Of a DNA stretch of 64,000 bases, positions 43,252 to 51,659 are shown piece by piece. The notes under the pieces were generated by a model that was given only the letters and a program-made list of their open reading frames with translations, searched no databases and had not been told where the DNA came from. The stretch lies in assembly GCA_963677485.1 (NCBI GenBank), contig OY781964.1:3392001-3456000 (forward strand), given 5' to 3'. The position numbers and the translations under genes are program-made. The stretch's first letter is position 1. Every line of letters starts with the position of its first letter. The DNA comes from Armatimonadota bacterium (GTDB lineage: Bacteria; Armatimonadota; HRBIN16).

Positions 43252-44496
43252 ATGATAAACATGCGGGAGTTTCAAATTGGGGCCTGGCACGGCCTGGGCT
43301 ATGGGCGGATGAACGAAAGAACGGTTCGTGAGGTGAAGGAGGCTGGTTTCACGCTGATCATGCCGCCAGGACCGTGGGAATACCGGCCGAAGGGTGTTAG
43401 TTATGTGCCGGGTAACCGCCAACTGCTTGACCTCTGCCAAAAGATGGGCATCAAGGCGCTGTTGTTTGATATCCGCATCGAAGAGGCCTTTTGGGGGTCG
43501 CTGCCAGTGGAGAAGGTTCTCGAAGCGGTGCAGGACTACCGCAGCCACCCGGCTCTGTATGGCTATTATCTGACCGATGAGCCGTCACGGAAGTCCTTTG
43601 AGCATGTGGCCGATATGGTGAGGCTGAGTCGCCAGGGTGACCCAAACCATCTGCCGATGGTGAACATCCTGCCCACCTACGGCGGACCTGTCCTCGGCAC
43701 CGCTACCTACCAGCAGTATGTGCGCCAGTATATCGAGGTGGTCAAACCCGATATGGTGTGCTACGACAACTACCACTGGTTTATCGACCCCAAGGCCCCT
43801 CCCATGCCCAACGATCAGGGGGAGGAGGCCTTGCAGCGCTGGATGGAGCTCTGGGGGAACAAGGCCTCAGGGTTTGATGCGCCTGGCTACATCACCAACC
43901 TGGAGATCGTGCGCGATGAGTGCCTGCGCGCGAAACTACCCATGTGGGTGACGGCGCAGCTTGTGCCTCAGGGTAACTGCCGCGACCCCAGACCGGCGGA
44001 ATTGCGCTGGGACGCCTATCATGCGCTGGCTTACGGCGCGAAGGGGATGTTGTGGTACAACTTCTGCACACCACCTAAGGATCAGTATAACTACCGCGAT
44101 GCCTGCCTGGACAGGGATGGCCAGCGCACGCACAACTATTACGAGATCGCCGAAATCAATAAAGAGATCATGCCGATCGGTCAGGTGCTGGCCCGCCTGG
44201 ACAGCACCCACGTGATGCATGTGGGCAAGGAGAGCGAGCCGGTCAAGCCGTTTAAGCCTACGGTGCCGCTGCTGTCCGTTCAGGGCGAATCGCTGACTGT
44301 GGGCATGTTCACGAAGGGTCACCTGATGGTGGTCAACAAGCTGCGCGACCGCGGTGCCTCCGTGCGCTTGGGCCTGAGCAGCGGCTGGCAGTTGGAGCGG
44401 TATGATGGGGCCACGCGGCGATTCGTGGCGATGCGCGGCACGGGCTTCGAGCTGCCTGCCTCCGGCGCGCAGCTTCTGCGCATGGTGCGGGGGTAG
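43252..44496 (+). CDS. Putative TIM-barrel glycoside hydrolase (unclassified)
   Basis: HPALYGYYLTDEP and PRPAELRW..YHALAYGAKG, shared with the catalytic part of 22922..24955. Confidence 0.6.
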   Translation: MINMREFQIGAWHGLGYGRMNERTVREVKEAGFTLIMPPGPWEYRPKGVSYVPGNRQLLDLCQKMGIKALLFDIRIEEAFWGSLPVEKVLEAVQDYRSHPALYGYYLTDEPSRKSFEHVADMVRLSRQGDPNHLPMVNILPTYGGPVLGTATYQQYVRQYIEVVKPDMVCYDNYHWFIDPKAPPMPNDQGEEALQRWMELWGNKASGFDAPGYITNLEIVRDECLRAKLPMWVTAQLVPQGNCRDPRPAELRWDAYHALAYGAKGMLWYNFCTPPKDQYNYRDACLDRDGQRTHNYYEIAEINKEIMPIGQVLARLDSTHVMHVGKESEPVKPFKPTVPLLSVQGESLTVGMFTKGHLMVVNKLRDRGASVRLGLSSGWQLERYDGATRRFVAMRGTGFELPASGAQLLRMVRG

Positions 44497-44503
44497 GGAT
44501 GTG

Positions 44504-44825
44504 TCACGCGGAGACGCGGAGGACGCGGAGAGCGATACATTTTAACGCCAAGGTGCAAGGATGCAAAGGCGCAGAGGGGATTGTAGGGGCATCGCGTGCG
44601 GTGCCCATGTGATTGTCTGAACCACGGATTACGCGGATGGAACGGATGACACGGATGGGGAGGGACGTGCCAATCGGGAGATTGGCATTTGCTGGAACGC
44701 GCGTACTAGGGGCAACCCCCCGTGGTTGCCCCATCACCCGGTGTCGGCCCTATCTCCTGGTGCTTGCCCTATCACCCGTTGTCGGCCCCATCACCTCCTG
44801 CACCGGCCCCATCACCCGGTGCCAC
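44504..44825. repeat. Mosaic of short repeats: periodic mini-repeats, REP-like palindromes and a 19-bp tandem repeat
   Basis: CGCGGAG x3 (44504-44530); GCAAGG-like x4 (44544-44576); GTAG palindrome (44583-44606); CGGAT x4 at 9-nt period (44620-44657); palindromes at 44669-44686 and 44707-44732; five ~19-bp units at 44729-44825. Confidence 0.75.
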
Positions 44826-44853: not shown

Positions 44854-45582
44854 TCACTGCAGGTCGTAGGCGCTGTCGTCGTCGCTGAGGTCCGCCAGGT
44901 CGGGGGCTTCGGTGCGCGGGTGGTATTTGGCCTTGGCGGCTTTCGTATGACCGTCACAATAGGCCACGGTGGCGGTGCCAAGATGCCGGAAATGCACATT
45001 GGGGCCTGTGTAGCCGTAGAAGACATCCAGCGGGGCCCGCAGATAGTTATTGCCCGCACGGGAACCGCCGCTTAACATTGCACTGTCAGCCATCAGCACC
45101 GTGTCAGAGGGCTGGGTGATGGCACTCTCCGTGGCGGGTAGACGGAACTCCGGCGGGTCGGGTATACAGCCGATATAACTGGTGTTGTAGGCATAACCGG
45201 TGTAGGGGCGTCCCCATTGTTCCTTGATCTCGTTGGCCGGGCAACTGCTTACTGCGTTGCTTTTGGTGTAGGCACCGATCAGACCGGGCTGCAGCTTAAC
45301 GACCTTATACTGCTGGTTCCAGGTGATGGTGTAATCCCAGGCGGTCTCCACCGTGTAGTCGGTGTTGTAGTAGACCGCCATCGGGTAGGTCTCATCGTAA
45401 TCCTGGTTATACATGCGGAAACCTAGTGCGGTTTGCTTCAGATTGCTCAAGCAGGTAGTCTGCTGCGCTTTGAGCCTGGCTTGCGCGAACACAGGGAACA
45501 AGATGGCGGCCAGTATCGCGATGATGGCGATGACCACGAGCAGTTCAATGAGGGTAAAAGCCTTGTGGGCGCGGTGATGCAT
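44854..45582 (-). CDS. Prepilin-type N-terminal cleavage/methylation protein, DUF1559 (H-X9-DG) family
   Basis: [29 protein letters not shown]...CLSNLKQ...QDYDE, and C-terminal [14 protein letters not shown]. Confidence 0.92.
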
Positions 45583-45633
45583 CAACAGATATACCCCTTT
45601 TTCCACGAAGAGTCCGTGCTATGACGGTGTGTT

Positions 45634-45736
45634 TCGGCATCCGGGCACTCGGGCTTATCTCGCAAGAGATACACCGTAGCGGGCCTGCAGCGGATTCTCA
45701 CCGCTTTCCCCCGGTCAACGCAATTGCGTATGCCAC
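45634..45736 (-). ncRNA. Cobalamin riboswitch (compact, class II-like)
   Basis: Minus strand reads GGGAA-AGCGGTGAGAATCCGCT-GCAGGCCCGCTACGGTG-TATCTC(TTGC)GAGATA-AGCCCGAGTGCC, matching the GGGAA / T-loop P4 / CCCGC-AC / B12-box layout. Located about 50 nt upstream of a start codon. Confidence 0.8.
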
Positions 45737-46018
45737 TCGATTCATTTTATGGTGATTAGCGTCGGCTGTCAAACGGAGGGGGTAGATGGCTCAGATTTGG
45801 GTGGATGTGGGTTACGGCGAAAGCACGATATTCGGCGTGATGGTCCATTTTACCGAGACATAAATGTCAGTCTATTGCCCACAAATATTGCATGACCAGT
45901 AGGCCACCGGTTCCGAGACATTGATGTCGCGGTATAGGGCGTGAGGGCTTCCGGTATAAATCGGGGCTATAAACTGTTAGGCGCATTCCACCGCTATCTC
46001 CACCCGGTCACGGAGCCG

Positions 46019-51569: not shown

Positions 51570-51659
51570 TGGCGGAGCGGGTGGGATTCGAACCCACGTT
51601 ACCCTTACGAGTAAACACGCCTTCCAAGCGTGCGCCATCGACCACTCGGCCACCACTCC
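51570..51659 (-). tRNA. tRNA-Ser(GGA)
   Basis: GGAGTGGTGGCCGAGTGG...CACGC-TTGGAAG-GCGTG, a long variable arm, GGTTCGAATCC and an encoded CCA. Confidence 0.96.

Follow-up and report, generated by a model that had tools for sequence, protein, structure and literature searches.

Cobalamin (vitamin B12) riboswitches are united in Rfam clan CL00101, with the families RF00174, RF01482 (AdoCbl) and RF01689 (AdoCbl-II), and the short ones among them tend to prefer smaller upper ligands. B12 uptake of the Escherichia coli type relies on a btuB riboswitch, the TonB-dependent receptor BtuB and the importer BtuFCD, and in Bacteroides the surface lipoproteins BtuG, a beta-propeller, and BtuH capture B12 together with BtuB, according to the available sections of three papers (PMC6143338, PMC8941943, PMC13616437). 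Prepilins of the DUF1559 type (PF07596, 'SBP_bac_10'), with an H-X9-DG motif, are among the largest families in Planctomycetota, Verrucomicrobiota, Lentisphaerota and Armatimonadota, and the open papers mentioning DUF1559 assign, in their available sections, no function to the family. DNA-uptake pili and type II secretion pseudopili are a precedent for a pilin which binds cargo and moves it through a secretin. Here we describe, in a stretch of 64,000 nucleotides (nt) from an Armatimonadota genome (contig OY781964.1, positions 3,392,001 to 3,456,000; hereafter the window), a compact cobalamin riboswitch (45636-45734, minus strand) lying directly upstream of a single gene (44854-45582, minus strand) for a prepilin-type protein of 242 amino acids (aa) with an H-X9-DG motif. 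Both had been proposed in an earlier note on this DNA, which placed the RNA at 45634-45736, and both proposals hold. The survey of relatives for this pairing that the note had called for found it in 31 firm cases and one probable case, cut by a contig end, among 41 genomes of the phylum; the pilin-like gene is a conserved member of the phylum's core B12 regulon, and its protein probably takes part in B12 acquisition in a role not described so far.

The proposed role resembles E. coli-type uptake in that it would be a B12-repressed first step at the envelope, BtuF-like and FecCD genes being present in the genome, and departs from it in that no TonB-dependent receptor was found in the genome or the genus and in that the regulated gene encodes a pilin fold and not a beta-barrel. 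The likeness to BtuG and BtuH, as the sections cited describe them, lies in accessory, B12-regulated envelope proteins standing ahead of a transporter and in a partner protein which is also a beta-propeller; here, however, the proteins are a prepilin and a PEP-CTERM-anchored, six-bladed NHL/paraoxonase-like partner instead of lipoproteins, and they have no sequence relation to BtuG or BtuH. As to the RNA, it shares with the clan the core, the P1-P6 layout and the 5' leader position, and orthologous loci also control B12-related genes; the window copy differs by its sub-threshold score and its shortened P6 extension.

At the Rfam gathering threshold no riboswitch is reported in the whole window. 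With permissive filters, RF00174 matches 45636-45710 on the minus strand at 29.1 bits, under its gathering score of 31.5 bits, with E = 1.8e-5 in the local search and 3.1e-5 over the whole 5.22-Mb genome; the match is local and confined to the core (model positions 46-168). The aptamer extends to its P1 closing helix (45734-45730 with 45640-45636), followed by the P2 hairpin, P3, a GGGAA junction, the P4 hairpin, P5/L5, a short P6 and a B12-box-like stretch, and both the conserved core sequence and the P1-P6 helices of the class can be recognized. The posterior probabilities of the RF00174 alignment are mostly maximal in the core, and the centroid fold shows the closing helix and the P2 hairpin. 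The element owes its compactness to the peripheral P6 extension, for which 69 model positions are represented by 24 nt, and among the aligned leaders 59-69 model positions are replaced by 5-24 nt. Although this extension is absent as in the AdoCbl-II type RF01689, RF00174 is the best clan member for the window; RF01689 scores highest only for the loci L027 and L043.

A match of this kind could be a relic or a coincidence, B12 sensing having been lost, and the score under the cut-off, the alignment restricted to part of the model and a fold energy no better than that of shuffles (z 0.20) are what such a decayed or chance RNA would give. We regard this as very improbable in view of the genome-wide E value and of what is found in the relatives. 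In G001 and G002, whose orthologs are 90% and 79% identical, the leader aligns column for column with that of the window and reaches global RF00174 scores of 30.4 and 33.7 bits, respectively, and the global structural alignment of the near-identical G002 leader gives P1, P2, P3, P4, P5 and a truncated P6. Over the leaders of the five closest orthologs the mean column identity is 67% with an invariant core, and RNAalifold on 5 sequences found compensatory changes in 4 of 28 predicted pairs, within P4 and P6. The leaders of more distant orthologs score 37-114 bits, with full-length aptamers at 70-114 bits, and a homologous leader is kept before the orthologous gene across many families. Finally, a sigma-70-like promoter (45744-45772, minus strand; TTGACA-17 nt-TAAAAT, 11/12 consensus positions) is placed exactly at P1, which starts ten bases past it; its -10 region is kept in the G001 and G002 leaders, and the region holds 4 promoter-like sites versus a shuffle mean of 1.0. 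Judging from these letters, transcription would start a few bases before the P1 helix.

The same genome provides a useful yardstick. The leader L003 (C1:1128225-1128298) scores just 20.0 bits with RF00174, over the same model range as the window copy, and 44.8 bits with our own model R1 (see below), and lies directly ahead of a CobA_CobO_BtuR adenosyltransferase gene; because of this neighbour, we consider that true B12 switches can score sub-threshold here. This leader, the aligned leaders of the orthologs and the full-length aptamers of the distant ones are the reasons why we judge the RNA to be real: by homology, as read from the sequence, it is a genuine cobalamin-class riboswitch, and the gene is very probably under genuine B12 control. 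The Rfam threshold misses true B12 switches in this lineage, at 29 and 20 bits. Another RF00174 match of the genome, L004 (14.8 bits), has no counterpart among the R1 matches and is regarded as fortuitous.

The distribution of the pairing was established from the best protein match in each of 40 relatives, which gave 29 loci beyond that of the window, each scanned with Rfam. A cobalamin-clan match was present in 17/17 and 8/12 of these (25/29), always upstream and on the same strand; the distance to the pilin motif is 57-366 nt for 24 loci and 1212 nt for the remaining one, where a gene intervenes. Among the first 17 loci, 14 are over the RF00174 cut-off (33.3-101.1 bits) and three under it (30.4, 30.1 and 22.6 bits); for the 8 matches of the other set, 7 are over the cut-off (one as RF01689) and the last, truncated by the contig end, reaches 30.8 bits. 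The 15 genomes without a locus or without a riboswitch were given a second pass with R1, a riboswitch model seeded mainly on pilin leaders, including that of the window, whose score of 107.7 bits is that of a seed sequence. Since RNAalifold yielded only 4 consensus pairs on the 21-sequence riboswitch alignment, R1 is in effect a sequence profile; it retrieved all 25 Rfam-positive loci and loci outside the seed, with no match in 4 negative loci. Its genome scans scored just 120-150 candidates each and are biased toward pilin leaders, so that other B12 switches may be missed. In this second pass the riboswitch preceded a pilin-like gene in five genomes (in two of these, a paralog other than the best match), a TonB-dependent receptor in three, a PEP-CTERM homolog in one and an unidentified open reading frame (ORF) in one, and R1 gave no match in 5/15. 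For comparison, an upstream, same-strand riboswitch was found at 4 of 78 background loci of DUF1559 type, a sample of superfamily members, not orthologs, from Armatimonadota, Verrucomicrobiota, Lentisphaerota, Planctomycetota and others; the Rfam scores of these four are 70, 47.1, 44.7 (RF01689) and 35 bits (RF01482, under its cut-off). The pilin-like leader is the only R1 match of the genome in 12 cases from genus g2 and in 7 from other families.

The expectation that the riboswitch-linked proteins would form a single clade was borne out against a narrow background and not against a broad one. In a tree with 13 other paralogs of the window's own genome they make a single group (27 rows, a riboswitch being present for 26; support 93/87). 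A broader quick tree of 77 rows, from which eight near-identical g2 rows were dropped and to which the background proteins were added, shows four neighbouring groups that form a grade, the window's subgroup having unregulated Armatimonadota paralogs nested next to it (supports 81-92); the riboswitch label needs 5 changes on it, versus 21.9 for shuffles. In this broad tree the proteins are strongly clustered without making up one clean clade. Two riboswitch cases from the Planctomycetota-Verrucomicrobiota-Chlamydiota (PVC) group fall elsewhere in this tree, and a protein from Chthoniobacteraceae is joined with two from the window's phylum (support 96), a hint that the module may have been transferred. 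Two short public contigs of metagenome-assembled genomes, L039 and L043, carry PVC-type DUF1559 genes under the labels Hyphomonadaceae and Clostridium; their proteins group with Phycisphaerae and PVC sequences, and the labels look like binning errors.

In other families the gene is often not solitary as it is in the window. It stands first in transport or salvage operons in at least six lineages: the riboswitch and the pilin-like gene are followed by Peripla_BP_2 (BtuF-like) and CobU in L012 and L013, by Peripla_BP_2 and the ABC ATPase ABC_tran in L014, by a small ORF and Peripla_BP_2 in L032, by CobU and CobT in L011, and by a 141-aa ORF and Peripla_BP_2 in L043. This company also bears on the idea of an adhesin or pilus subunit that would be made during B12 starvation for attachment to B12-producing partners or to surfaces. 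Pilins commonly mediate adhesion, and a gene that stands alone, as it does in the window's genome, would suit such a behaviour; a gene heading operons for transport and salvage does not, and a paralog controlled by a second vitamin beside salvage genes for that vitamin (see below) fits nutrient handling better. We hold the adhesin to be quite improbable.

In some genomes the operon includes a PEP-CTERM protein. In L034, from the window's phylum, the riboswitch is followed by a PEP-CTERM protein and the pilin-like gene, with a FlgD_ig-like protein also in the operon, and in L057 (Chthoniobacteraceae) by a PEP-CTERM protein, an unknown ORF of 267 aa and the pilin-like gene; the two genes share an operon in L034/L123, L122 and L057, and in L122 and L123 the pilin motif begins 101 and 119 nt past the PEP-CTERM stop codon. 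The window's genome splits the pair, with each gene under a separate B12 riboswitch: in the region C1:2996758-2998023, the riboswitch L001 (51.2 bits with RF00174, the only cobalamin riboswitch of the genome over the Rfam threshold) controls a PEP-CTERM protein of 327 aa. This protein is 37% identical to that of L034 over the full length (E 3e-37) and shows a weak relationship to its Chthoniobacteraceae counterpart (E 4e-5 and 2e-7). Homologs occur in 8/41 genomes, with a riboswitch upstream in 8/8 loci. Its model (predicted local distance difference test, pLDDT, 86.1) is a six-bladed beta-propeller of the NHL/paraoxonase type, with TM-scores of about 0.6 to Brat, TRIM2, Drp35 and PON1, and this fold does not bear out, for the window genome's protein, the idea of a BtuH-like partner; no BtuG or BtuH chain is among the 38 Foldseek matches listed for it (ranks 1-50). 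A complex prediction between the propeller (residues 28-300) and the pilin head (36-242) scored 0.01 and is uninformative either way.

These shared operons invite another explanation, that of a secretion adaptor: the protein would be a cargo-specific pseudopilin for type II-like export or display of B12-scavenging exoproteins, such as the propeller, and would carry no corrinoid itself. The constant association of the PEP-CTERM family with the riboswitch, the FlgD_ig-like protein in L034 and a pseudopilin-like fold with matches to EpsG and PulG all suit it. Most operons, however, pair the gene with BtuF, CobU or CobT and have no secreted partner, the PEP-CTERM homologs are limited to eight genomes versus the 31-32 with a riboswitch-led pilin-like gene, and the paralog linked to the second vitamin has no secreted neighbour, so that the secretion adaptor seems to us improbable. 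In the reading that we favour, where the pilin-like protein itself handles corrinoids, the propeller would probably work in the same pathway at the cell surface.

The protein itself has the marks of a prepilin. PF07963 (N_methyl) is its sole Pfam match, at 35.4 bits (cut-off 21.2), and NCBIfam adds the TIGR02532 prepilin domain (31.7 bits, cut-off 16.3) and matches to the N-terminal parts of numerous models for pilins and pseudopilins. The class III signal with Glu+5 is present, its F-T-L-I-E being invariant in 22/22 clade members. The -1 residue is Ala in the window protein and in many members of the clade, and Gly in others (e.g., L010, L011, L014, L032 and L034). The H-X9-DG motif was matched by regular expression in the last 120 residues, and its His, Asp and Gly are conserved in the clade; at E<=0.01 NCBIfam has no row for the window protein with TIGR04294, which we take to be the accession of the H-X9-DG family. 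PF07596 reaches 15.6 bits (E 0.017) over residues 34-80 only, under the cut-off of 23.3, and all 22 clade members match it at E<=10, the best at 8.8e-14. The DUF1559 membership asserted in the earlier note is thus to be qualified: the protein, like its clade as a whole, appears to belong to a divergent branch of the family, and it remains below formal Pfam membership. It shares with the DUF1559/H-X9-DG prepilins the N-terminus, a Cys pair and the YxxDxD and H-X9-DG-H motifs, and differs from the typical ones by clade-specific residues, absent from 16 paralogs: G129, Y132, A165-D166-S167, P184, G202 and A204. The closest orthologs are 90, 79, 56, 56 and 51% identical to it.

An AlphaFold2 model from a 22-row alignment (pLDDT 79.3; predicted TM-score, pTM, 0.76) has a long N-terminal helix (11-61) on an antiparallel beta-sheet head. 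Foldseek found nothing at E<=0.001 in the PDB with this model. The best matches by VIA-align are pilins and pseudopilins, at modest values (Z 5.8-3.6, root-mean-square deviation, rmsd, 3.0-4.8 Å, 84-126 residues): PilA4 comes first (Z 5.8, rmsd 3.3 Å, 124 aligned residues), and EpsG (Z 4.4) and PulG (Z 3.8) are among the others, so that the closest structures lie in DNA-uptake pili and pseudopili (PilA4, EpsG, PilV, ComP, PulG). The class III signal with Glu+5 and the helix and beta-sheet fold are common to both sides; the differences are the proposed vitamin cargo, a head about twice as large, the H-X9-DG motif, the Ala at -1 and the lack of adjacent pilus genes.

The genome in which the protein would operate is 97.4% complete and in one contig. 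It contains one prepilin peptidase (Peptidase_A24), three secretins and eight T2SSE ATPases (GspE/PilB/PilT-type), and, on the side of B12, one BtuF-like protein standing alone, one strong FecCD permease match and three proteins with B12-binding domains. A CbiC search gave 0 matches, and de novo B12 synthesis would be lacking; the TonB-dependent receptor barrel (TonB_dep_Rec) likewise gave 0 matches and 0 candidates. From these parts, the following scenario can be drawn. The riboswitch would be transcribed from its own promoter and, when the cell has sufficient B12, would shut off the single gene, most likely at translation initiation. The prepilin made under shortage would be cleaved by the prepilin peptidase and incorporated, as a minor subunit or at the tip, into a short fibre resembling a type IV pilus or a type II pseudopilus, for which one of the three secretins would serve as the passage. 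The enlarged head domain of this subunit would bind the corrinoid, which would be brought into the periplasm and passed to the BtuF-like protein, upstream of a BtuF/BtuCD-type inner-membrane importer, and the pilin-like protein would take the place held elsewhere by the TonB-dependent receptor BtuB. A role in corrinoid acquisition ahead of BtuF/BtuCD is rather likely, and well supported because of its context, i.e., the conserved adjacency and the operon partners, and we give a similar degree of confidence to the explanation as a whole. The scenario would require the protein to bind its ligand, to be assembled into a filament and to hand the ligand over to BtuF, and capture by a pilus, as the specific mechanism, is a possibility that we put forward tentatively.

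The main alternative to pilus-borne capture is a periplasmic binder tethered to the membrane: the protein would stay unpolymerised, anchored by its N-terminal helix, and would bind corrinoids and hand them over for BtuF/BtuCD without any role at the outer membrane. The Peripla_BP_2 and ABC ATPase genes in the same operons are what one expects of such a binder, an Ala at -1 may weaken the cleavage, and the head exceeds about twofold the classical pilin heads (242 aa vs 111-158 aa for most matched chains). It also agrees with the genomes of g2, most of which keep a TonB-dependent receptor alongside. The invariance of the N_methyl motif with Glu+5 in 22 clade members is, in contrast, what one would see if the protein had to be processed and assembled; the genome has a peptidase, secretins and assembly ATPases, and a tethered binder would leave the passage of the outer membrane unexplained, since no receptor was found there. 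We consider it unlikely, and yet the most serious competitor of the pilus-borne capture.

Beside the sub-threshold, core-only match and the fold energy discussed above, and the lack of one clean clade in the broad tree, several points weigh against a role in corrinoid capture through a pilus. The window's pilin-like gene adjoins no transporter gene. With Ala in place of Gly at -1, processing as a prepilin would not be assured, although prepilin peptidases tolerate Ala at this position. No known B12-binding family or fold (BtuF, BtuG, BtuH, transcobalamin-like) is among the Pfam, NCBIfam or fold-search matches of the protein; the absence of a fold match may leave room for a new corrinoid-binding site. 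The presumed lack of de novo B12 synthesis depends on CbiC as a single marker. Expression is hinted at by metatranscriptome contigs from two runs, 45594-45743 and 45520-45703, with 2 differences each, the second of which runs as a single molecule from the aptamer across the start codon and over 62 nt of the coding sequence; the hint is weak, as the contigs give neither strand nor level and may come from DNA carry-over. Their depth at 45466-45576 is due mostly to the conserved prepilin N-terminus of other organisms, and uncovered parts of the gene carry no meaning.

A further objection comes from the TonB-dependent receptors. They are present in 29/41 genomes and absent from the window's genus and genus g3, and 12/13 genomes of g2 have both a receptor and the riboswitch followed by the pilin-like gene; because the two coexist in most g2 genomes, the pilin-like protein need not replace BtuB. 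On the other side, a riboswitch followed by a receptor gene was seen only in G033, G034 and G036 (L146, L145 and L143; in G034 with a 173-aa ORF in between), all of which are without a riboswitch-led pilin-like gene, and no genome with the latter has a riboswitch immediately before a receptor. The receptor gene of G014 is divergent from the riboswitch leader. The complementarity of pilin-like protein and receptor is suggestive, and relies on three genomes and on the sensitivity of R1.

Support of another kind comes from a second vitamin. All Rfam families were run against 580-800 nt of upstream sequence for the 14 other prepilin-type paralogs in the genome, and the single match was a thiamine pyrophosphate (TPP) riboswitch (RF00059, 65.1 bits, gathering 54.3). 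In this unit (L139, C1:1156365-1159338) the riboswitch is followed by a DUF1559 paralog of 248 aa, a thiamin pyrophosphokinase and an SSF symporter; the paralog passes the DUF1559 cut-off (35.1 bits) and branches at a large distance from the B12 clade. That each of two vitamin riboswitches is followed by a DUF1559 paralog of its own is the strongest support here for substrate-specific subunits, an idea of the earlier note which thereby gains a second case. Extended to the whole family, it would make the DUF1559/H-X9-DG prepilins interchangeable, ligand-specific capture subunits of a pilus- or pseudopilus-based import of nutrients through secretins, which we regard as speculative and somewhat more doubtful than the capture of corrinoids by a pilus. 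If true, the clade with the B12 riboswitch would be corrinoid-specific and the paralog with the TPP riboswitch thiamine-specific, the unregulated paralogs, of which a genome has dozens, would be devoted to other substrates, and vitamins would cross the outer membrane independently of TonB in diderm Armatimonadota and PVC groups. The number of DUF1559/H-X9-DG matches per genome ranges from 7 to at least 66. Elsewhere on the contig, C1:1441340-1444594 encodes three closely related H-X9-DG prepilin paralogs in tandem (269, 269 and 286 aa), with no upstream Rfam match.

A riboswitch is an unusually clean functional label, since the metabolite is named, and this label together with the B12-linked btuF, cobU and cobT operons of many families makes the function of a DUF1559 protein directly testable. 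The locus also points to B12 uptake without BtuB in bacteria that lack TonB-dependent receptors. The open full-text literature contains no paper linking pilins, pseudopilins or DUF1559 to B12, subscription journals being outside this search; PMC12530212 has, in the part available, cyclic di-GMP (c-di-GMP) riboswitches as its subject.

The way in which the riboswitch would act on the gene can be narrowed from the expression platform (45583-45635, minus strand), which has a hairpin (45604-45618) and a Shine-Dalgarno (SD) sequence (45594-45600) without a U-rich terminator. The hairpin persists through G-C to G-U changes among 5 sequences, and the SD is located 35 nt behind the aptamer. No terminator-like site was found on the minus strand after the aptamer, and this absence and the closeness of the SD are why we infer translational repression; B12 would thus repress the gene through control of translation. 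In minimum-energy folds a CCUU tract pairs with the SD in two ortholog groups, and in the window's own fold part of the SD pairs with the beginning of the coding region. The partner differs between orthologs, and folding yields no single conserved switching helix. As to the sequestration of the ribosome-binding site that had been suggested earlier, the SD is partly paired in the folds, and ACTCTTC as its partner is neither confirmed nor excluded by them.

As to the gene, the ORF finder gave a frame at 44854-45606 on the minus strand, with a GTG start at 45606 (250 aa); we consider the ATG at 45582 as the likely start because the 90%-identical G001 ortholog has a TAG in the upstream extension. 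The next gene downstream (43252-44496, plus strand) is convergent, and the unit is monocistronic as had been stated. The neighbours, identified by Pfam and NCBIfam, are a PBP5/DacA-like carboxypeptidase, ScpB and ScpA (same strand, upstream), a GH141-like protein and an unknown protein; neither btuB nor btuF is among them, in accordance with the earlier observation. The spacer between the convergent genes carries tandem repeats of period 19/38 (44722-44821; 2.6-4.8 copies, 67-79% matches) and further, shorter ones at 44506-44531 and 44624-44658. The sole Rfam match of the window at the gathering threshold is an 87-nt tRNA with a long variable arm (51573-51659, minus strand, 54.4 bits).

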